This document shows, piece after piece, positions 81 to 11,424 of a DNA stretch of 22,358 nt (positions are counted from its first letter, which is position 1; each line of letters opens with the position of its first letter). A model generated the notes under the pieces. That model worked only from the letters and a program-made list of their open reading frames with translations, had not been told where the DNA came from and did no database searches. Location of the stretch: NCBI GenBank assembly GCA_049969615.1, contig JBMFOM010000021.1, forward strand, positions 1 to 22,358, in the 5' to 3' direction. Source of the DNA: a candidate division WOR-3 bacterium (lineage in GTDB: Bacteria > Hydrothermota > Hydrothermia > JBDRYB01). Both the position numbers and the translations under genes were made by a program.

Positions 81-329
81 TCAGGCCCTGAGCAATTCCA
101 CTAGCCACTCCAACAACCTGTCCGCGCCCCGTTCAAGCTCCCTTATCTTTAGGGCTATGTCTGAGCGCTGGGCCATCAGCCGGGAATAGAGGGCGCCGGC
201 CCTGGTGTCGCCCTGAAGTGCTTGCTCCTCAATCCTGGTTAGAACAGCGTCAATCCTGGTGAGGGTGTCCCTCAGAACCCCCACTGGGTCCAGAGGTTCT
301 CCTCCACGAACTCCGCGAGCTCTCTGCAT
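81..329 (-). CDS. Small helical hypothetical protein, third ORF of the sigma operon; real start may be nearer 284-293
   Basis: Amphipathic helical ORF overlapping the end of 272..484, with a GGAGG site at about 300-304 on the minus strand. EQALQGDTRAGALY loosely resembles the 'A..GD..AA.L' segment of some phage small-terminase-like proteins (weak). Confidence 0.55.
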   Translation of the reverse strand: MQRARGVRGGEPLDPVGVLRDTLTRIDAVLTRIEEQALQGDTRAGALYSRLMAQRSDIALKIRELERGADRLLEWLVELLRA

Positions 330-484
330 CGTTCCTCGCCAAAACGCTTTCTAACCCAAAGGAGGCTCTTTCTCTCGTATATGATTGCCTCGGCTATTTC
401 AAGGAGATCCGGCCTCATGGCCTCAAGTCTGTCCAGGAGCAAGTTTCCCTTTCCAACCAAAACAAAGCCATTATCCCGCGACAT
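272..484 (-). CDS. Sigma-70 region-4-like small protein (C-terminal half of a split sigma factor)
   Basis: LLDRLEAMRPDLLEIAEAIIYERKSLLWVRKRFG follows the region-4 pattern L..L..LP....I.....YEG.S..EIA..LG. It has its own GGAG RBS 7 nt before the ATG. The recognition helix is poorly conserved. Confidence 0.55.
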   Translation of the reverse strand: MSRDNGFVLVGKGNLLLDRLEAMRPDLLEIAEAIIYERKSLLWVRKRFGEERCRELAEFVEENLWTQWGF

Positions 485-821
485 GTTCTCTCTCCAATTC
501 GTCTATGGACACGAAAATCATCCGTGTGGCCTTCTTTTTGAGCTTCCAGAGGTGCTTTTTCATCGCGCCTATGTAGTATTGTCTGAACTCCCTCCCTTTC
601 CCGGGTTTCCAAGAGGAGAGCACCTTGAACAGGAGGAGTCTCAGCTCCTGAGCCACATCCTCCTGGTGTCTGCCGTCCATGAAGTTGGCCGAGACCCTGA
701 GGATGTAGCGCTCCAGATATGAGTGCAGACGGACGAAGGCATCGGGATCGCCCATGCTCGCGGCCATCGCGGCCCTGTCTATCTCCGCCGCGTCGGGATT
801 CATGTTATATAGTGAATTCAT
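471..821 (-). CDS. Sigma-70 family (SigH/ECF/phage-type) factor, region-2 half
   Basis: Contains GDPDAFVRL, EDVAQELRLLLFKVLSSWKPGKG-EF..Y and VSIDEL, typical of sigma region 2 plus linker. Strong GGAGG RBS 8 nt before the ATG. Confidence 0.75.
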   Translation of the reverse strand: MNSLYNMNPDAAEIDRAAMAASMGDPDAFVRLHSYLERYILRVSANFMDGRHQEDVAQELRLLLFKVLSSWKPGKGREFRQYYIGAMKKHLWKLKKKATRMIFVSIDELEREHVAG

Positions 822-874: not shown

Positions 875-900
875 CTTTATGCTCTGAAACTTCACCATGA

Positions 901-919
901 TCCGTTATATTATAACGGA
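901..919. promoter_or_regulatory. Perfect palindrome, putative repressor operator overlapping a -10 box
   Basis: TCCGTTATA-T-TATAACGGA (9-bp arms) sits between the divergent repressor and sigma genes and contains TATAAT on the minus strand. Confidence 0.65.
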
Positions 920-924
920 AAAGC

Positions 925-1590
925 GTGATGAAGATCAAGAGTATAACTAATATGCGTGAGGAAGGAGACACCATCGGTTCCCGCATAAAGAGGGCTAGGG
1001 AAATAAGGGGAATGTCTCAGCTCGGCCTGGCAAGGAAAATAGGGGTTCCGTTCCAGCGGATCTCTGAGTGGGAGAGGGGCATTGTCTCCCCTTCGGCCCG
1101 CTACCTGAGGGCCATAGCTGACGCGCTCTCGGTTTCTCTGGACTGGCTCCTTTCGGGTTATGGTCCGGCCGAAACCCCGCGGGAAGGGGAATCGCGGTTT
1201 GGCGTCTCGCTGGCTCCTGTATACGGCACAGTACCTGCGGGTCCGCCTTACGATCCTGGTGATCCCGGGGTCATTGAAGTGATGGGCATTCCGGCCGAAT
1301 ACTCGGGAAGGGATGTCTTTGGCCTCATCGTGAAGGGTGACTCCATGGCCCCCACCCTCATTGACGGAGACAGGATTCTGGTGGCCAGGGATGTGAAACC
1401 ACGGGACGGCCTGGTGGTCGTGGTTAGGCTGAACGGCGGAGAATACACAGTCAAGCGCATGAGAAGCCAGGGAAATCTTCTCATACTCTCTCCGGATAAC
1501 CCGAACTTTCAACCTGTGGTCGTATCTCCAGAGGATTCCTGCGACATAGTCGGTGTGGTGGTTGAGGTCATCAGGAGGTTAAACGCATGA
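925..1590 (+). CDS. XRE-family HTH repressor with S24 (LexA/CI-type) autopeptidase domain; likely start ATG 952
   Basis: HTH IKRAREIRGMSQLGLARKIGV..QRISEWERG, cleavage site VPAG, catalytic Ser in GDSMAP and Lys in TVKR. Confidence 0.92.
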   Translation: MMKIKSITNMREEGDTIGSRIKRAREIRGMSQLGLARKIGVPFQRISEWERGIVSPSARYLRAIADALSVSLDWLLSGYGPAETPREGESRFGVSLAPVYGTVPAGPPYDPGDPGVIEVMGIPAEYSGRDVFGLIVKGDSMAPTLIDGDRILVARDVKPRDGLVVVVRLNGGEYTVKRMRSQGNLLILSPDNPNFQPVVVSPEDSCDIVGVVVEVIRRLNA

Positions 1591-2730: not shown

Positions 2731-3376
2731 ATGGGCCAGAGAGAAAAGCTTAAAATCATGATCTTGGCGCTTTTGCGCTTACTTGAAAAAGAGGGTGAGG
2801 CACCTTCCAAGACAAATTGAAAAAGAGGGTGAGGCACCTTCCAAGACAAAGATCGCCAAGCTTCTACTTCTTGCTGACCTCGCTTATTACAAAGAGCGAG
2901 GAAAATCTCTTTTGGAATCCACCTACACCAGGATGGCTTTTGGACCATGCCCTATGTCATTAGAGGAGATTTTGGACGAAGGGATAGAGGAAGGTCTCTG
3001 GAAGACCGAAGCTCGTCCTTTCCTTCATGATTCCGAAAGAGAGGTTTATGTTGTTTATATCCCCATAAACCCTATGCCAGAGCTGGAAGAAGACGCGGTT
3101 ACATTGCTGAAAAACACGATCAAGGAACATGGGTATAAGAAAGCTATAGATCTTTCAAAACTGAGCCATGATATACCTGCCTGGAAACAAGCGCGGGATG
3201 GTGATATATTGCTCCTGGAAGAGCTGGCGATCACAGACCCTGATGAATATGAGCTTACCCTGAAGATTGTAGATGAAATGGCGGATCCCACATCTGAAAA
3301 GACAAGACGGGCTCTAGATGATCTTCTAGAGGGCCGTGCTGATCTCAGAGTAAAAGGAGGGGATGGGAGTGCCTAA
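2731..3376 (+). pseudogene. Panacea (DUF4065/SocA-like) antitoxin frameshifted by a 34-bp tandem duplication; possibly still translated from TTG 2783
   Basis: GGAGG RBS + ATG 2731 reads MGQREKLKIMILALLRLLEKEGEAPSKTN*. Removing one repeat copy restores a 203-aa ORF with KTKIAKLLLLADLAYY..G, YTRMAFGP and LSKLSH..PAW, characteristic of DUF4065. Confidence 0.78.
2783..2850 (+). repeat. Exact 34-bp tandem duplication
   Basis: TTGAAAAAGAGGGTGAGGCACCTTCCAAGACAAA at 2783-2816 and 2817-2850. Confidence 0.97.
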
Positions 3377-3743
3377 TGCAGAAATGTCTCGTTTCACCGA
3401 AGCTCTTGAAGAGGTAGAGACAGGTCTCAGGGCTGCGGCGCGCCGAAAAATAGAAGAAATTGAAAGCGCACCTAAAAGGGCGGGTAGACTGCTTACGGGT
3501 GAACTCAGTGGCCCCAGAAAGGCTTATGTCAGAGAGAAGTATAGAATTGTGTATCTAATAATATCCGAGCTCTGTTCTATCATGGGGCTCAACGAGAATG
3601 AATTCATCCGAGATCGTCTTGGAGGGAAGCTAGCTGGGGATAGCATTATTTTCCTGACTTTTGAACCTAGAAGCGAGGAATACAAACAAGCACATAGCAT
3701 AGCCAGGAAGCTTAAGGGAACACCCAAGAGATCAATGAAATAA
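3363..3743 (+). CDS. RelE/ParE-superfamily toxin
   Basis: GRLLTGELSGPRKAYVREKYRIVY matches the RelE core. GGAGG RBS; overlaps the antitoxin end. Confidence 0.7.
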   Translation: MGVPNAEMSRFTEALEEVETGLRAAARRKIEEIESAPKRAGRLLTGELSGPRKAYVREKYRIVYLIISELCSIMGLNENEFIRDRLGGKLAGDSIIFLTFEPRSEEYKQAHSIARKLKGTPKRSMK

Positions 3744-6807: not shown

Positions 6808-7236
6808 TCAGAATCTGACGGTGTGTACCCGGAGATAATAAAACCCGGCCTCTTTAGCTGGAACAGCCCCCACTATTCGCCAATGGGGGCCTTCCTCCCC
6901 TCGCTCAAGGGTCATACCTGGCCTGCCTTCAAATGGCCCGAATTCCTTTCCGTCTATGATGACATAAAGCTCGTCTTGCTTTTTGGCCCAAAACCCCCAG
7001 GTTGAGCCGTCGGAGGAGATTTCGGGCCCATATACGTCATCATAAGGCCCGTATTCTTTTGGCTCCCACTTCTTTCCGCCGATCCAGACAACCTCTCCGC
7101 CTTTCTTTTGTGCCCTGAAACCAATCAGGTTTTCCGAGGGTGAGAAGACCTCCACTATCTTCTTATACGGCCCATATGGGCCGAGGGCTAAAGTCTCTCT
7201 TAGATCCCTTTTCTCGTTTGCTTCTTTTGAGCTCAT
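6808..7236 (-). CDS. Hypothetical protein with about 2.5 internal beta-repeat units
   Basis: AGGAGG RBS. Repeats YGPY..I....SP....GFRA.K / YGPY..V....SSDG..WGFWAKK / DGKEFGPF. Confidence 0.7.
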   Translation of the reverse strand: MSSKEANEKRDLRETLALGPYGPYKKIVEVFSPSENLIGFRAQKKGGEVVWIGGKKWEPKEYGPYDDVYGPEISSDGSTWGFWAKKQDELYVIIDGKEFGPFEGRPGMTLERGEEGPHWRIVGAVPAKEAGFYYLRVHTVRF

Positions 7237-7354
7237 GTCTATCCTCCTTTTTCTCCTTCACGGGCATAGCTTAAAGCTCCCCATCAAGCTGTTTCAGCCC
7301 TCAGCCTCCGATCCACAAGCTTGCGGCCAGGCCAGGGTTTGAGCTATAAGAAAC

Positions 7355-7391
7355 CCCTGAAAAACCCGGTTTGTCAGCCTCATCATAGCTA
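7355..7391. repeat. Dispersed intergenic repeat, copy 1
   Basis: CCCTGAAAAACCCGGTTTGTCAGCCTCATCATAGCTA, identical to 19049-19086 except for a 1-nt indel. Confidence 0.9.
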
Positions 7392-7438
7392 AAGGCTTTC
7401 GTTGCCCACGGCAAGAGCGGGTAGTCAGAAGAACAGGC

Positions 7439-7843
7439 CTAGTCCTGATTGGGCGAGAAGGGGTCGCGCTTCATCCCCTCAAACGCCATGACCAAGAAGC
7501 CGAGGCCTCTGAGGAGCTCGTCTACAGGCATGCAAAGCATCCTCTGCCTGAGCTGCTCTATCCTCCTGGTCGCCCTCCGGTAGTCCCTGAATCTCCTGTC
7601 CGTGGAAACATCAAGGATGGCCAGGATGTGAATGAGCCGGTCAACTGAGGGTTCATCACCAAGGAGCGGAGCAAAGGCCTCTTCAACCGAGCCAAAGACT
7701 GCCTGGAGCCAGACCAATGTAAGGGCATTCGCGAGCCGAACCCTCACAGGGCCAAGACGGCCAAGCTCACCCCTGAGAAAACCCGTAGCTATGGCCTTTC
7801 TCCTCTCAAGATCCGCAATTGCCCTTTCGGTGAGCTTGTTCAC
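7439..7843 (-). CDS. Putative tail assembly chaperone-like protein
   Basis: Small helical ORF coupled by GTGA overlap directly after the tail tube gene; assignment from synteny only. Confidence 0.5.
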   Translation of the reverse strand: MNKLTERAIADLERRKAIATGFLRGELGRLGPVRVRLANALTLVWLQAVFGSVEEAFAPLLGDEPSVDRLIHILAILDVSTDRRFRDYRRATRRIEQLRQRMLCMPVDELLRGLGFLVMAFEGMKRDPFSPNQD

Positions 7844-8553
7844 GATCCATCCTCCAGGATTCTTTCCCTGACTATGAACCCGTCCTCGTCAGCCAGAAGA
7901 ATGAGGTTCAGGTTCGCTATGGTCTCCTTGCCCGAGCTGAACTCCTCGGACCACGAGGAGACCACCGCCCTTCTCGCCTCTATTACCCTGAAGGCCGGAT
8001 CCGCGGAGGGGTTCCTGCCAAGGGCTGGGAATACCAGGATTAGTCCCACCTCACAGGAATGCCAGGATTCACTGATACTTTCGCCATAGGCATAGGAAAC
8101 AAGGATCTCTTGGCCCGCGTCTTCCTCTGAAAAATACAGGGCCTTTTCCTCTGGTCTGAGGGAGAATTTCCCGGCAGACGGGATGCCCGCGAGACCGAAA
8201 GCGTCGCCGGCGGGGGTTTCAACCACAAGGCTCTCGGGCAATGGCTCTTCCGGCAGAATTATCCTGAACGGTTGTGTGGCCGGAACAACAAAGCTCGCGG
8301 CCCTCCTGAATGCCCTTGCCGCTCCGGGCCCCACAAAGGGGTTTCCCTCCACGAATACCCTGGCAACGCAAGAGATGGTCCCGGTTCCAGGGCCAGCCAC
8401 AACTGCAATGGGAAAATCGTCCCTGTCCGAACCGAGCGGTCTCATGGCATAATCAATGAGGAGGCTCGCCCTCTCAAGATCAGCTATCTTGAAAGGCTCA
8501 TCCCCCATAACGAACATCTCCCCGACGCCCCCGGAATAGTATGTTCTCTTCAT
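7840..8553 (-). CDS. Putative phage major tail (tube) protein
   Basis: AAGGAG RBS + ATG 8553. FPIAVVAGPGTGTISC and PSAGKFSL....LYFSEEDAGQEILVSYAY resemble siphophage tail tube proteins with an inserted beta-domain. Position follows the neck genes. Confidence 0.65.
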   Translation of the reverse strand: MKRTYYSGGVGEMFVMGDEPFKIADLERASLLIDYAMRPLGSDRDDFPIAVVAGPGTGTISCVARVFVEGNPFVGPGAARAFRRAASFVVPATQPFRIILPEEPLPESLVVETPAGDAFGLAGIPSAGKFSLRPEEKALYFSEEDAGQEILVSYAYGESISESWHSCEVGLILVFPALGRNPSADPAFRVIEARRAVVSSWSEEFSSGKETIANLNLILLADEDGFIVRERILEDGS

Positions 8554-8564
8554 TTTCTTCTCCT

Positions 8565-8909
8565 TCAAAAGAAACATCTGAGGGTAAGCCTTACAACTGC
8601 CCTCTCGCCCTCCTGCAGGGATGTAGCCGAACATTCGGCGACGCGCAACCCCAACCCAGAGTAAAGCGCGTGCCTCGCCTCCTCAGCAAGCGCGAGCGCG
8701 TCCGAAAGACAGGACTCCACCGCCAGGACATCCAACCTGAGAAGACCATGCTCGTGGTCAGGAGAACAGAGAAAGACCTTCTCCCAGCGAGCGGCATAAT
8801 AGAGACCCGGTTCGGCGGGTTCGCCCAACCTGGAATCCAAAGGTATCGCTGGGTGGCCCGCTTCCTCAAGGATAACGAGGATGTGCTGAAGGTAATCCGC
8901 GAGATTCAT
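8565..8909 (-). CDS. Putative tail terminator / tail completion protein
   Basis: 114 aa with LRLDVLA....DALALAEEARHAL pattern; canonical position before the tail tube. Confidence 0.55.
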   Translation of the reverse strand: MNLADYLQHILVILEEAGHPAIPLDSRLGEPAEPGLYYAARWEKVFLCSPDHEHGLLRLDVLAVESCLSDALALAEEARHALYSGLGLRVAECSATSLQEGERAVVRLTLRCFF

Positions 8910-9241
8910 TTTATCTCAAACCTCCCCGCGTATTCCTCAAGGACAAGCTCCCAGTGATCCGTGCCGAAACCCGAAAACCGCTTTATATCCTTGACCCGAT
9001 AAACCTTACCCGCGTGTTCAACCCAATACGGTTCCCGGTCAAGCGGAGGGATTATGGCGAGAAAAATATCCCTGGCATCAGTGCCGAATTGATTGGATTC
9101 CGCCGCAGTTGAGATATTTCCCCAGCCGCATTGGACCCGGGTATCCCTTACGAAAACCGCCCTTTCCGCGCCCAAAGAATCCCTGTCTCCGCCGGAGCAA
9201 AGGACATACAGGCTATCCTTCATTAGAAATCCCATTGCCAT
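8906..9241 (-). CDS. Putative head closure / head-tail adaptor protein
   Basis: AGGAGG RBS and TGATG coupling. RDSLGAE and VEHAGKVYRVKDI.......HWEL patterns of SPP1 gp16-like proteins. Confidence 0.6.
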   Translation of the reverse strand: MAMGFLMKDSLYVLCSGGDRDSLGAERAVFVRDTRVQCGWGNISTAAESNQFGTDARDIFLAIIPPLDREPYWVEHAGKVYRVKDIKRFSGFGTDHWELVLEEYAGRFEIK

Positions 9242-9762
9242 CAGAGAAACCTCCTCCTGTGGGTATATTTGATGAGGACCCACCGCACATCCTGCGTAAA
9301 GAGGGGGTTATCATGAAAACTCAGACCTGTCTCGCCAGCGCTAAAGCCAGAGACATCTGGCCTTGGTCCAACGAGTATCCTCGCGGCAACCCGGGCAGTT
9401 GTCCTCATAACATCAGGAGGAACAGGGGATTTCGGGTCATTGTAGTGATATTCAACATCAACGGCCCCGGCAGTCTCAACCCTCATCTCGCCTATACGCT
9501 GATTCAACCACTCCCAGTCCACATCCTCGCCACGGGCGTTTTTCACGGATACAACGCTGTGCACGGGCCAGTGGTAGAGCAGAATTGAGCGGTTCAGGGG
9601 GAAGTGTCGTTCCCTGGCGGTCTCGGCCCTGAAGTGTCTCCCCGTGAACGAATCAACCAGGTCAGAGGCCTGGGATATGGCAAGGGTGATCTCTTCATCA
9701 GGCCTAGTGGGTTCACCCAGGAGGGCGAGCTCGGCCTTTACATCATTCACATTGCAATACAT
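9241..9762 (-). CDS. Phage head-tail connector (HK97 gp6 / SPP1 gp15-like)
   Basis: MYCNVNDVKAEL, AISQASDLVDSFTGRHF, PVHSVVSV and VPPDV motifs; GGAG RBS. Confidence 0.8.
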   Translation of the reverse strand: MYCNVNDVKAELALLGEPTRPDEEITLAISQASDLVDSFTGRHFRAETARERHFPLNRSILLYHWPVHSVVSVKNARGEDVDWEWLNQRIGEMRVETAGAVDVEYHYNDPKSPVPPDVMRTTARVAARILVGPRPDVSGFSAGETGLSFHDNPLFTQDVRWVLIKYTHRRRFL

Positions 9763-9772
9763 CTCGCACTCC

Positions 9773-9796
9773 AGAAAGGGGGCCTTTCGGCCCCCT
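9773..9796 (-). terminator. GC hairpin after the capsid gene (partial terminator or mRNA stabiliser)
   Basis: Minus strand AGGGGGCC-GAAA-GGCCCCCT then TTCT, just after the capsid stop. Confidence 0.7.
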
Positions 9797-9803
9797 CGGT
9801 TTC

Positions 9804-10829
9804 TCACTGGCCGAGGTTTTCGGCCTTGACGAATGGCGTTATTCCCCCGTCCGTATCCCAGGCCAGCTTGCCGTCTGTTCGCTCGGTCACCGTTATCAGG
9901 ACCTCGTCCTTGAGGGCAAGGTCCTCGTCCTCTGTTATGACCCTTATCTCCATGCTCCTGCGGTCAAAGATGTGATAGAAGCTCATGTCACCTAGATAAA
10001 TGTCCCCATCTGCCAGGACAGTCGCCTCGCGCACAGGCCTGCCGTATATGGTCCACGGGAAGGCCTCCGAGAGGCTTGGGGTGAGCAATGGGCGTCCGGC
10101 TGTATCTGCAAGGCCGAGCAGGAGGGCCTTTGTAGCGCTATTGGTATACCAGGTGGCGCGCTCCCGAAACTCAACCGGCAGTTTGAGGTATATCTCGTTG
10201 AGAACCTCAAGGATTTCCCGGCCGGTTGCGTCAATCACCCAGCTGGAGGGTATCGCGGGGTCTATGCCTGATGGCTTTCCAGACCCATCGCCCAGCCAGA
10301 AGGCGGTTTCCTCGGTATGCCTTATAGCCCTTCCCAGGGAATCTGTTATCTCCGCGCCAATATCCGCCGAGTTGTCCTCAAGGGCCTCAAGGGTCACCCT
10401 GGTGAATGCCTTGAGCTTGTTCGCGTTCCATGCAAGATAAGTGAAAGCGGGTTGGGACTCGTCCGGTGGTTCCGTACCCTCTGAGACCCAGTATGCGGTC
10501 AGCGATGGCCTGGCAACCGGAATCCTGCCGGTTGATTCAGAGACCCTGTGAACTGTCGCACCTGGCCTTACAGAAGCCCCGCGCTCGGCGGCCTTTATGA
10601 CCTCATCAGAAACCCCAGCCGGAAGGAAGGGGGTATCCCCTGATGTGAGGGTCTTCAACATGGCCTCGTTCCTGAAGGCCATTGCCTTTACTATATCAAC
10701 GAGGCGCTTTTTGGGGTCACCAGGCTCTCCAGCCGGTCCATAGGCCTTTCTGAGCCTATCGTCCATTGCCTCCCTAACAGCGTTTCTCAGGAGCACCGAG
10801 AGCTCCTTTCTCGTCAGTTCCATGTTCAT
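9804..10829 (-). CDS. HK97-fold phage major capsid protein
   Basis: FLPAGVSDEVI, AYWVSEG, KLKAFTRVTLEALEDN, AFWLGDGSGKPSGI, LADTAGRPLL, TIYGRPV, GDMSFY and ERTDGK are hallmark HK97-family motifs. Confidence 0.95.
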   Translation of the reverse strand: MNMELTRKELSVLLRNAVREAMDDRLRKAYGPAGEPGDPKKRLVDIVKAMAFRNEAMLKTLTSGDTPFLPAGVSDEVIKAAERGASVRPGATVHRVSESTGRIPVARPSLTAYWVSEGTEPPDESQPAFTYLAWNANKLKAFTRVTLEALEDNSADIGAEITDSLGRAIRHTEETAFWLGDGSGKPSGIDPAIPSSWVIDATGREILEVLNEIYLKLPVEFRERATWYTNSATKALLLGLADTAGRPLLTPSLSEAFPWTIYGRPVREATVLADGDIYLGDMSFYHIFDRRSMEIRVITEDEDLALKDEVLITVTERTDGKLAWDTDGGITPFVKAENLGQ

Positions 10830-11368
10830 TCCTCCCTTATGCTTATGTTCTCCTCGGAATCGTCTGTTCCAAAGAGAAGATTTATCCTCTCAATCTCCTT
10901 TTCCACCCTGCCCATGCCATCCCTATACAGGGTGTTAAGGGCCTCAGGGTTTGCTGGGACAGAAACAGCTGAATACTCAAGGAGTTCCTGTCTCCTGTAT
11001 CTCCGGCCTCCCGAGGGAAGCGGTTCCCAATCCAGGGCAATGAAAGACACGCTCCACGCGGAGAGAACGCCCTCCCTGTATAACTGCCATATCTCGTCAG
11101 CCAAAGGGGTTCTGGCGAAACGGGTTTTCGCCACAATGGCATCCCCTTCCCGCCTGATCTCAAGGCAACGCCCTACCGGCGCGTCGTATCTGTGCATCCA
11201 GAGGACAACTGGATTCTTGAGGAAGTTTTCCATCTCCCAGCCTGAGACCTCAACTATGTCCCCATCCCTGTCCTGAGCGGGCGTTGATATTACCGCGTCC
11301 ACGACCCTCTCGGCCTCGTGAACCCCGCGGGTGAAACCGGTTTTCACTATCAGCATCTCTTCCTCCAT
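10826..11368 (-). CDS. HK97-family prohead (maturation) protease; likely start ATG 11356
   Basis: ISTPAQDRDGDIV, FLKNPVVLWMH (His), AWSVSF (Ser) and ELLEYSAVSVPANPEA. Confidence 0.95.
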   Translation of the reverse strand: MEEEMLIVKTGFTRGVHEAERVVDAVISTPAQDRDGDIVEVSGWEMENFLKNPVVLWMHRYDAPVGRCLEIRREGDAIVAKTRFARTPLADEIWQLYREGVLSAWSVSFIALDWEPLPSGGRRYRRQELLEYSAVSVPANPEALNTLYRDGMGRVEKEIERINLLFGTDDSEENISIREE

Positions 11369-11389: not shown

Positions 11390-11424
11390 GGTAATAGTGC
11401 GCGAATGTCTCACCACAGGCCTTG
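11386..11424 (-). promoter_or_regulatory. Putative late promoter of the head-tail operon
   Basis: Minus strand CAAGGC-ctgtgg-TGAGACA-ttcgc-GCACTATTA-cccgtg, matching 834-874. Confidence 0.5.

Follow-up and report, generated by a model that had tools for sequence, protein, structure and literature searches.

The stretch of DNA analysed here, called the window in what follows, is an entire contig (C21, JBMFOM010000021.1; 22,358 nucleotides, nt) of the metagenome-assembled genome of a candidate division WOR-3 bacterium (GCA_049969615.1; 2.06 Mb in 203 contigs), and all the evidence discussed is computational, drawn from sequences and predicted structures. Close to the beginning of the window, three overlapping open reading frames (ORFs) follow one another on the minus strand in the order ORF1, ORF2 and ORF3. 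The first encodes region 2 of a sigma factor of the extracytoplasmic function (ECF) type, and the second encodes a small protein whose predicted fold resembles sigma region 4 (Table 1). The subject of this report is the junction between these two genes and what it says about the sigma factor that they may form.

Table 1. Positions of the features discussed, numbered from the first letter of the window (aa, amino acids)
Feature	Position	Strand	Description
ORF1	471-821	minus	116 aa, ECF-type sigma region 2 (sigma2) protein
ORF2	272-484	minus	70 aa, small four-helix protein with own ATG; predicted fold sigma region-4-like
ORF3	81-329	minus	82 aa, conserved helical protein; weak DUF5681 match
Overlap of ORF1 end and ORF2 start	471-484	minus	14 nt, ATGTCGCGGGATAA
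Shine-Dalgarno sequence of ORF2	487-495	minus	GGAG at 495-492, running into (GA)4 at 494-487
Repressor, cI/LexA type	925-1590	plus	XRE helix-turn-helix and S24 peptidase; Peptidase_S24 5.2e-22, HTH_3 3.7e-16, phrog_4 9.7e-46
Sigma-operon promoter, housekeeping type	909-938	minus	TTGATC-18 nt-TATAAT; 10/12 matches, conserved
Inverted repeat centred on the -10 box	892-928		core CCGTTATA-A-TATAACGG; 18-nt arms, 78% complementary
CACTATT in the sigma-operon leader	841-847	minus	6 nt before GGAGG; candidate -10 of a second, self-activated promoter; in 8/9 loci
CACTATT upstream of the protease-capsid operon	11393-11399	minus	
Protease-capsid operon, putative target	6808-11368	minus	prohead protease, HK97-type major capsid, head-tail adaptor and five small ORFs

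On the minus strand the junction reads GAA TTG GAG AGA GAA CAT GTC GCG GGA TAA. The ATG of ORF2, at 484-482, lies in the +1 frame with respect to ORF1 (821-484 = 337 = 3x112+1), 7 nt behind the GGAG of its ribosome-binding site, and the (GA)4 tract that follows this GGAG appears on the plus strand as TCTCTCTC at 487-494. An insertion of 2 nt or the skipping of 1 nt would convert the two frames into a single reading of approximately 183 aa, a figure obtained by arithmetic on the sequence. The original prediction had described this anatomy (ORFs of 116 and 70 aa, the overlap, the junction, the position of the tract, its coincidence with the GGAG of ORF2 and the arithmetic of the fusion), and the sequence bears it out in every particular. 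It had also put forward three explanations, namely a genuine two-part sigma factor, a slippage ON/OFF switch, and an inactivating mutation or sequencing error, which the comparison with related loci makes it possible to weigh.

Ten related loci were compared: the window, two genomes of the same genus and seven metagenome contigs, in which the identity of ORF1 to that of the window goes from 84% down to 49%, so that amino-acid divergence reaches about 50%. All ten have ORF1, ORF2 and ORF3 in the same order, with ORF2 in the +1 frame, and keep both the position of the ORF1 stop and the start codon of ORF2. The stop falls 11-17 nt past the ORF2 ATG; the overlap measures 14 nt in eight loci, while L011 has a shorter one of 11 nt and L022 a longer one of 17 nt. 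GGAGG-N6-ATG precedes ORF2 in nine of them, and the window has GGAGA at this place; by this alignment, ORF2 carries a conserved Shine-Dalgarno sequence and a conserved ATG of its own. The arrangement of two ORFs, conserved in 10/10 loci, is far beyond chance. In group 4 (ECF-type) sigma factors both domains reside on one polypeptide and are joined by a linker, whereas here there are two ORFs in every locus.

The same picture emerges from the searches with the individual proteins. A search with ORF1 over proteins of 63-203 aa, a range in which a fusion of 183 aa would be detectable, found fourteen proteins at E<=0.001, counting that of the window, and none of them is fused. Nine of the fourteen are 116 aa long and the others measure 112, 113, 115, 125 and 155 aa; the forms of 125 and 155 aa have an N-terminal extension only and finish at the same end point. 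Among proteins of 204-2000 aa no longer ORF1 form was found. The search with ORF2 gave eight proteins, again without a fused one (0/8), and the seven besides the window's own are all 70 aa long. An ORF2 profile compared with 1.84 billion representatives retrieved only three small stand-alone proteins (63-69 aa) and three long repetitive ones. As these searches portray it, the ORF2 family is small and never fused, and among the loci examined it is always accompanied by ORF1. The question whether orthologs are fused or split, raised in the original prediction, is therefore answered: they are split in all ten loci, and the fused form occurs among none of the homologues found.

Selection acts on both frames. 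Pairwise dN/dS values, calculated without the near-identical pair L017/L019, are 0.08-0.17 for ORF1 and 0.09-0.40 for codons 6-50 of ORF2, the part that overlaps neither neighbour, at dS of 0.4-1.7. Such purifying values in both frames imply that ORF1 and ORF2 have been kept as coding sequences over a long divergence. The variable parts of the proteins are the last ten or so residues of ORF1 and the first twelve or so of ORF2, which is as expected of true chain ends. On these alignments, the split is ancestral to a small WOR-3 clade and has been kept there by selection.

These observations bear directly on the possibility that the junction arose through a mistake in sequencing or assembly, or through a frameshift that recently inactivated the gene of a single-chain sigma factor. 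The window is, after all, a contig of a metagenome-assembled genome, and word depth at the junction is low (3.8 and 2). However, an identical split is present in nine other, independently assembled loci, and purifying selection acts on the reading frame of ORF2. In addition, Logan contigs from two runs of two studies, X1 (covering 431-606) and X2 (covering 426-585), agree with the window without a single difference, and both have (TC)4; nothing came from X3 and X4. Conservation, selection and identical contigs together rule out an error or a recent mutation, the probability of which is practically nil.

They also leave almost no room for the repeat switch, in which slipped-strand changes in the copy number of (GA)n would toggle the gene between a split (OFF) and a fused (ON) form. 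It is true that one extra GA unit joins the frames of ORF1 and ORF2, but the tract is found in only one of the ten loci and has only four units. AGAGA follows GGAG in the window alone, and other loci have GGAGGCTGAAT, GGAGGAAGACT, GGAGGCGGAAT and others in its place. Tracts of equal or larger size are common in the genome, where maximal (GA)n/(TC)n repeats of at least four units number 88 (78 of four units and 10 of five). The relatives that have no tract keep the same split under selection, and an in-frame ON form is absent among the homologues found. As to the heterogeneity between (TC)4 and (TC)5 at 485-496 that the original prediction proposed to look for, the contigs of both runs are consistently (TC)4, although this check rests on assembled contigs, in which minority (TC)5 variants are invisible. 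A slippage switch therefore has a minute probability, and the sequence comparison indicates that (GA)4 at the junction is no more than expected by chance, an accident of this locus within a ribosome-binding site that is itself conserved, and has no switching role. The analogy with phase-variable contingency genes was considered and rejected, given that the repeat is short, is not kept in relatives, shows no copy variation in the contigs and has no in-frame ON relative.

It could also be supposed that a programmed +1 ribosomal frameshift within the overlap yields some fused sigma factor of 183 aa beside the separate products. The +1 relation and the short overlap are conserved, and a Shine-Dalgarno-like GGAGG lies upstream, as such a sequence does at the frameshift site of prfB. 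Nevertheless, over the 11-17 nt of the overlap and the 18 or so nt before it only TGGAG (TGGAGG in nine loci) and the ATG are constant, the codon preceding the ORF1 stop varies (GGA, GGG, ATC, CTG, GAT), and no conserved slippery or hungry codon of the prfB type exists at the junction across the ten loci. The GGAGG lies 6 nt from the ATG, an ordinary geometry for initiation, and about 24 nt from the stop, while in eight loci the ORF2 frame contains a stop 18 nt ahead of its ATG. The likelihood of such a frameshift is very small. Among the explanations first offered, the genuine two-part sigma factor is the one favoured by a split, a frame, a stop and a start kept in ten of ten loci at about 50% divergence, with purifying selection in both frames.

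The identity of ORF1 as a complete ECF-type sigma region-2 domain is established by profile and fold together, despite its modest family scores. In Pfam it reaches 17.9 bits with Sigma70_r2, under the cut-off of 24 bits, which is a point against a plain sigma assignment, and 17 bits with HTH_16 (PF12645; cut-off 22 bits), a family that presumably covers proteins like Orf7 of Tn916 and that the homologue of L022 matches with 22.2 bits. Three of the four profile matches in the Protein Data Bank (PDB) are sigma factors, at E 0.6-1.4. The AlphaFold2 (AF2) model, with a predicted local distance difference test (pLDDT) value of 74.8, has four helices, and each of the first 30 Foldseek matches listed is a sigma factor, aligned through its region 2; the best of them is ShbA (9isn_F; probability 1.00, template modelling (TM) score 0.61, E 0.062), and none listed reaches E<=0.001. 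The profile of ORF1 aligns by hhalign with that of a family of single-chain proteins from marine contigs at 97.4% probability (E 1.3e-11) and with the ECF sigma factors of this genome at 70.7%, over residues 18-113. All seven distant relatives tested (single-chain proteins of 167-191 aa and an ORF of 91 aa in L023) score 38.9-51.7 bits with Sigma70_r2, against the same 24-bit cut-off, and these relatives also match phage sigma families of PHROGs. ORF1 ends about eight residues past VSIDELE, the motif that closes region 2 and opens the linker in single-chain relatives. The region-2 label of the original prediction is thus upheld by hhalign and Foldseek alike.

The phage contig L023 (3616-4260) deserves a separate remark. 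With a large terminase of 770 aa followed by a portal, it carries a region-2-only ORF of 91-94 aa (Sigma70_r2, 44 bits) that ends at the ...SLDELE point, like ORF1, and is followed 12 nt on by an ORF of 115 aa that belongs to no family. This pair may be another cut sigma factor.

The nature of ORF2 is a more delicate matter. Its model (pLDDT 69.6) consists of helices at residues 15-23, 25-35, 41-48 and 50-63, in the order expected of region 4. In a comparison with 48,161 chains by VIA-align, the top ten matches are all sigma region-4 chains, with Z 5.0-5.9 over 55-67 aligned residues, and include SigF, SigR, SigA domain 4, SigG1, sigma-H, region 4 of sigma-E, CnrH and sigma-28. An independent model from the ESM Atlas gives seven sigma clusters among ten structural rows, with TM 0.54-0.69. 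Several results weigh against this assignment. The Z values fall below 8, a range in which VIA-align may reflect a common helical arrangement; Foldseek is weak, its best match being a SigL region 4 complex at E 3.2; Pfam finds nothing in any of the 14 members of the ORF2 family; the PDB profile search with ORF2 returned nothing relevant; and hhalign gives only 1.3% with the C-terminal halves of the single-chain relatives and 0.06% with the ECF sigma factors of this genome. The feature search of the ESM Atlas likewise had no usable match for ORF2. The original description of the 70-aa product as region-4-like consequently stands as far as the predicted fold goes, with its best matches in region 4, but finds no counterpart at the sequence level. 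On the strength of the models, a region-4-like fold has a somewhat better than even chance, and ORF2 would be the equivalent of region 4.

In view of these results, the alternative that must be taken most seriously is that ORF1 is a sigma-like factor with region 2 only, acting alone or with a host protein, and that ORF2 is an unrelated small helical protein, be it an anti-sigma factor, a regulator of the Cro or excisionase type, or an adaptor linked to ORF1 only by the shared operon. The missing sequence link between ORF2 and region 4 speaks for it, as do the modest Z values, the matches to other helix-turn-helix proteins (KorA, ArdK, FocB and antiterminator Q), and contig L023, where a region-2-only ORF ends at the same point and the next ORF is not region-4-like by eye. 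On the other hand, the ten best of 48,161 chains and seven of ten Atlas rows point to sigma factors, ORF2 is placed exactly where region 4 follows in a single-chain ECF sigma factor, and it is coupled by start and stop to ORF1 in all ten loci, its family never occurring without ORF1 among the loci examined. This alternative is regarded as unlikely. The acidity of ORF2 (pI 4.7-5.4) might be read as speaking against DNA binding, but this argument was rejected, the C-terminal 70 residues being equally acidic in 11 of 12 single-chain relatives. A predicted complex of ORF1 and ORF2 had a score of 0.00 in both runs, which were made without controls, and has no bearing either way.

The third gene overlaps the end of ORF2 by 58 nt when counted from its ATG start, and by 13 nt from a GTG start; one public record has ORF3 begin at this later GTG. 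At 272-329, the 58 nt encode in two frames an invariant C-terminus of ORF2 (ENLWTQWGF) and an invariant N-terminal part of ORF3 (GEPLDPVGVLRDTL), and double coding may be the cause of this invariance. PHROGs has no family for ORF1, ORF2 or ORF3, and the feature search of the ESM Atlas yielded no usable match for ORF3. Beyond ORF3, approximately the first 77 bases of the contig (region 1-89) are repeated at 91-97% identity on seven other contigs of the genome, on several of them at or near the contig end; recurrent sequence at this place would explain why the assembly breaks directly after ORF3.

On its other side, the sigma operon faces the gene of a cI/LexA-type repressor, which is adjacent and divergent in all nine loci that include upstream DNA. 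The repressor has GDSM and, further on, a lysine and Ala-Gly, which we take to be the marks of S24 self-cleavage. A promoter scan of the region found four promoter-like sites, as against 0.5 in shuffled sequences. Even L022, the most distant locus, retains the core of the inverted repeat that surrounds the -10 box of the sigma-operon promoter, and the divergent repressor presumably uses this palindrome as its operator, a candidate role suggested by the position of the repeat. With a -10 box inside a palindrome and a self-cleaving repressor beside it, the operon would be induced by DNA damage. The leader of the operon also contains a small hairpin, TGAGT-CAA-ACTCA (849-861, minus), directly before its CACTATT; it is present in six of nine loci and altered in L011 and L021.

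The word CACTATT was first noticed when the leaders of the sigma operon, the protease and the portal were compared, and it leads to a group of genes derived from phages. The protease-capsid cluster of the window has no adjoining portal or terminase, is flanked by ordinary cell genes and is syntenic in the related genome G052. The portal stands alone on contig C45 (L048, 2811-3926) and a complete large terminase stands alone on C69 (L061, 2848-4158), both of them likewise surrounded by cell genes of the ordinary kind. In G052 the terminase, the portal and the capsid occupy three separate loci of one contig, about 45-50 kb apart, and the scattered head and packaging genes are conserved in two sister species with 75-87% identity. 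The phage head and packaging genes look domesticated, in the manner of a gene transfer agent, and not like a decaying prophage.

A scan of the genome for CACTATT added a gene of 115 aa on C8 and a three-gene module on C124 (L049, 3151-4418), which encodes proteins of 226, 124 and 70 aa behind the word and is directly followed by the contig end; the last of the three has a weak holin match (phrog_689, E 4.5e-4) and a coiled-coil match to DUF7201. The exact word is kept amid diverged flanks before the portal, the C124 module and the C8 gene in three of three species each, before the protease in both species examined and in the sigma operon in eight of nine loci. The large terminase was found with the Pfam model Terminase_6N after the motif had been defined (the models TerL_ATPase, TerL_nuclease and Terminase_3 find nothing in the genome), and CACTATT lies 6 nt before its GTG in all three species, amid upstream sequence that is otherwise unrelated among them. 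This position fits the -10 element of a leaderless mRNA, to judge by spacing.

Against these conserved sites must be set what the genome as a whole has to say. CACTATT is not enriched near starts genome-wide, with 14 start-proximal sites among 113 occurrences, and among 209 permutations of its letters 117 give as many start-proximal sites and 19 as high a fraction. No -35 box shared by the sites was seen, and the recurring word GTCATTCG found near them has an inconsistent spacing. Two paralogous winged-helix proteins with no phage link (HTH_36/MarR_2, weak RP-C), on C1 (L059, 2314-2982, minus) and C99 (L060, 31-660, minus), each alone among cell genes, have the word 6-8 nt ahead of the start codon. 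CACTATT is connected with the sigma factor by association only, and some other regulator could be the reader of the motif. All these points weaken the idea of a regulon; the enrichment being insignificant, the case for CACTATT comes from its conservation across species and from the identity of the genes that carry it. The pattern suggests a damage-induced two-piece sigma factor that would drive a dispersed regulon of phage-particle genes, an idea that is held tentatively and at slightly less than even chances.

Elsewhere in the window, the region 2783-3743 holds a protein with a SocA/Panacea antitoxin domain (2783-3376; Pfam 1.8e-11) and, overlapping it, an ORF of 126 aa of no family, a possible toxin-antitoxin pair. 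Relatives were found only in L017 and L019, and the matching interval in G052 is only a few nt long.

Taken together, these observations can be assembled into a single explanation, in which ORF1 and ORF2 are real genes, separately translated and translationally coupled, that form a natural two-piece sigma factor with the control and the targets proposed here; it is considered probable to a moderate degree. The anatomy of the locus suggests that the housekeeping-type promoter would serve the operon, with its -10 box in the palindrome that the S24 repressor would bind, and that damage to DNA would lead to cleavage of the repressor and to expression of ORF1, ORF2 and ORF3. Once made, the products of ORF1 and ORF2 would sit next to each other on RNA polymerase and act as a sigma factor of two polypeptides, in which no linker would pass through the RNA exit channel. 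We hypothesise that this sigma factor reads short, CACTATT-type promoters that resemble a -10 box and have no shared -35 box. Since one such element precedes its own operon, it would reinforce its own synthesis by positive feedback, and through the elements before the scattered genes for the large terminase, the portal, the protease and capsid and the holin-like protein it would switch on the production of phage-derived particles. The most far-reaching version holds that a damage-released sigma factor of two polypeptides is the master switch of a domesticated particle system, similar to a gene transfer agent, in a WOR-3 genus from hot springs, the genes of which, scattered over about 100 kb, would be tied together only by CACTATT promoters of the -10-only kind that give leaderless or nearly leaderless mRNAs. 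This version is speculative and rather improbable; it would resemble the late transcription of phage T4, but fixed in a bacterial genome.

What appears to be a frameshift in a metagenome-assembled genome is a gene architecture maintained by selection, and not an error or a repeat switch. With it, the bacteria outside the Firmicutes gain a lineage in which an ECF-type sigma factor is apparently composed of the products of two coupled genes, the cut falling at the domain linker. If the link to CACTATT is true, it also offers a testable handle on the co-regulation of scattered phage-derived packaging and head genes in an uncultured thermophile.

The literature search on split or two-subunit sigma factors found no report for this lineage, nor did that for WOR-3 together with gene transfer agents; split forms of sigma factors are named as unexplored in a paper on the reclassification of ECF sigma factors (PMC7826278). 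The nearest detectable relatives of ORF1 are the single-chain, phage-type ECF-like sigma factors of the marine contigs (L025-L040), with 31-40% identity over residues 37-110 or so, whose region 2 likewise stops at ...VSID/SLD... They differ from ORF1 in that they run about 100 residues further, into a region-4 helix-turn-helix (GLTMEEIT..LGES.YKVRQ) to which ORF2 has no similarity.

Among two-subunit systems, the comparison with SigO-RsoA made in the original prediction is a fitting one, as an analogy, in that the functions of regions 2 and 4 would reside on two polypeptides from neighbouring genes. In SigO-RsoA (YvrI-YvrHa) of B. subtilis, the sigma2 and sigma4 domains are described as located on two separate polypeptides (PMC7826278; bioRxiv 10.64898/2026.10.01.756105), and the system is linked to the acid-stress response (PMC10141391); two accounts differ as to which subunit carries which domain (PMC10141391; PMC7826278). 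In the present locus, by comparison, the gene for region 2 leads the pair and encodes the larger protein (116 against 70 aa), the genes overlap by 14 nt, an S24 repressor would exert control, and the probable targets are genes of phage origin and not a regulon of acid or envelope stress.

The split sigma factor Sig7-Sig8 of Tn916 is reported to activate the main promoter of the element with positive feedback, Orf7 being a region-4-like protein and Orf8 an RsoA-like one (bioRxiv 10.64898/2026.10.01.756105). The likeness consists in a sigma factor of two genes that belongs to a mobile or phage-like element, and in the weak HTH_16 match of ORF1; the host phylum, the control by a repressor and the targets all differ, and the two systems are compared by description.

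In phages, gp55/gp33 of T4 and gp33/gp34 of SPO1 are pairs of small proteins that, according to the same source, jointly replace sigma for the late genes (bioRxiv 10.64898/2026.10.01.756105). The T4 pair resembles the one described here in combining a small protein of the region-2 type with a second small protein, for late, particle-building genes. The late promoters of T4 have an extended -10 box only, and the CACTATT sites are likewise devoid of a shared -35 box. The differences are that the locus gives no sign of dependence on a sliding clamp, that ORF2 looks like a plain region-4 fold, and that the genes belong to a bacterial chromosome and have scattered genes of phage origin as neighbours.

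The nearest parallel in control logic is the Xre/Xpf system of PBSX, in which a damage-responsive repressor, a small group-4 sigma factor and particle genes act in succession. Xpf, which is classified as a group IV sigma factor with sigma2 and sigma4, linked to PBSX and DNA damage (PMC10141391), is a single polypeptide, and the genes of PBSX form one cluster, whereas here the terminase, the portal and the capsid are found at three loci. Sigma factors of two subunits are already established as a kind, and the locus described here is probably another such pair.

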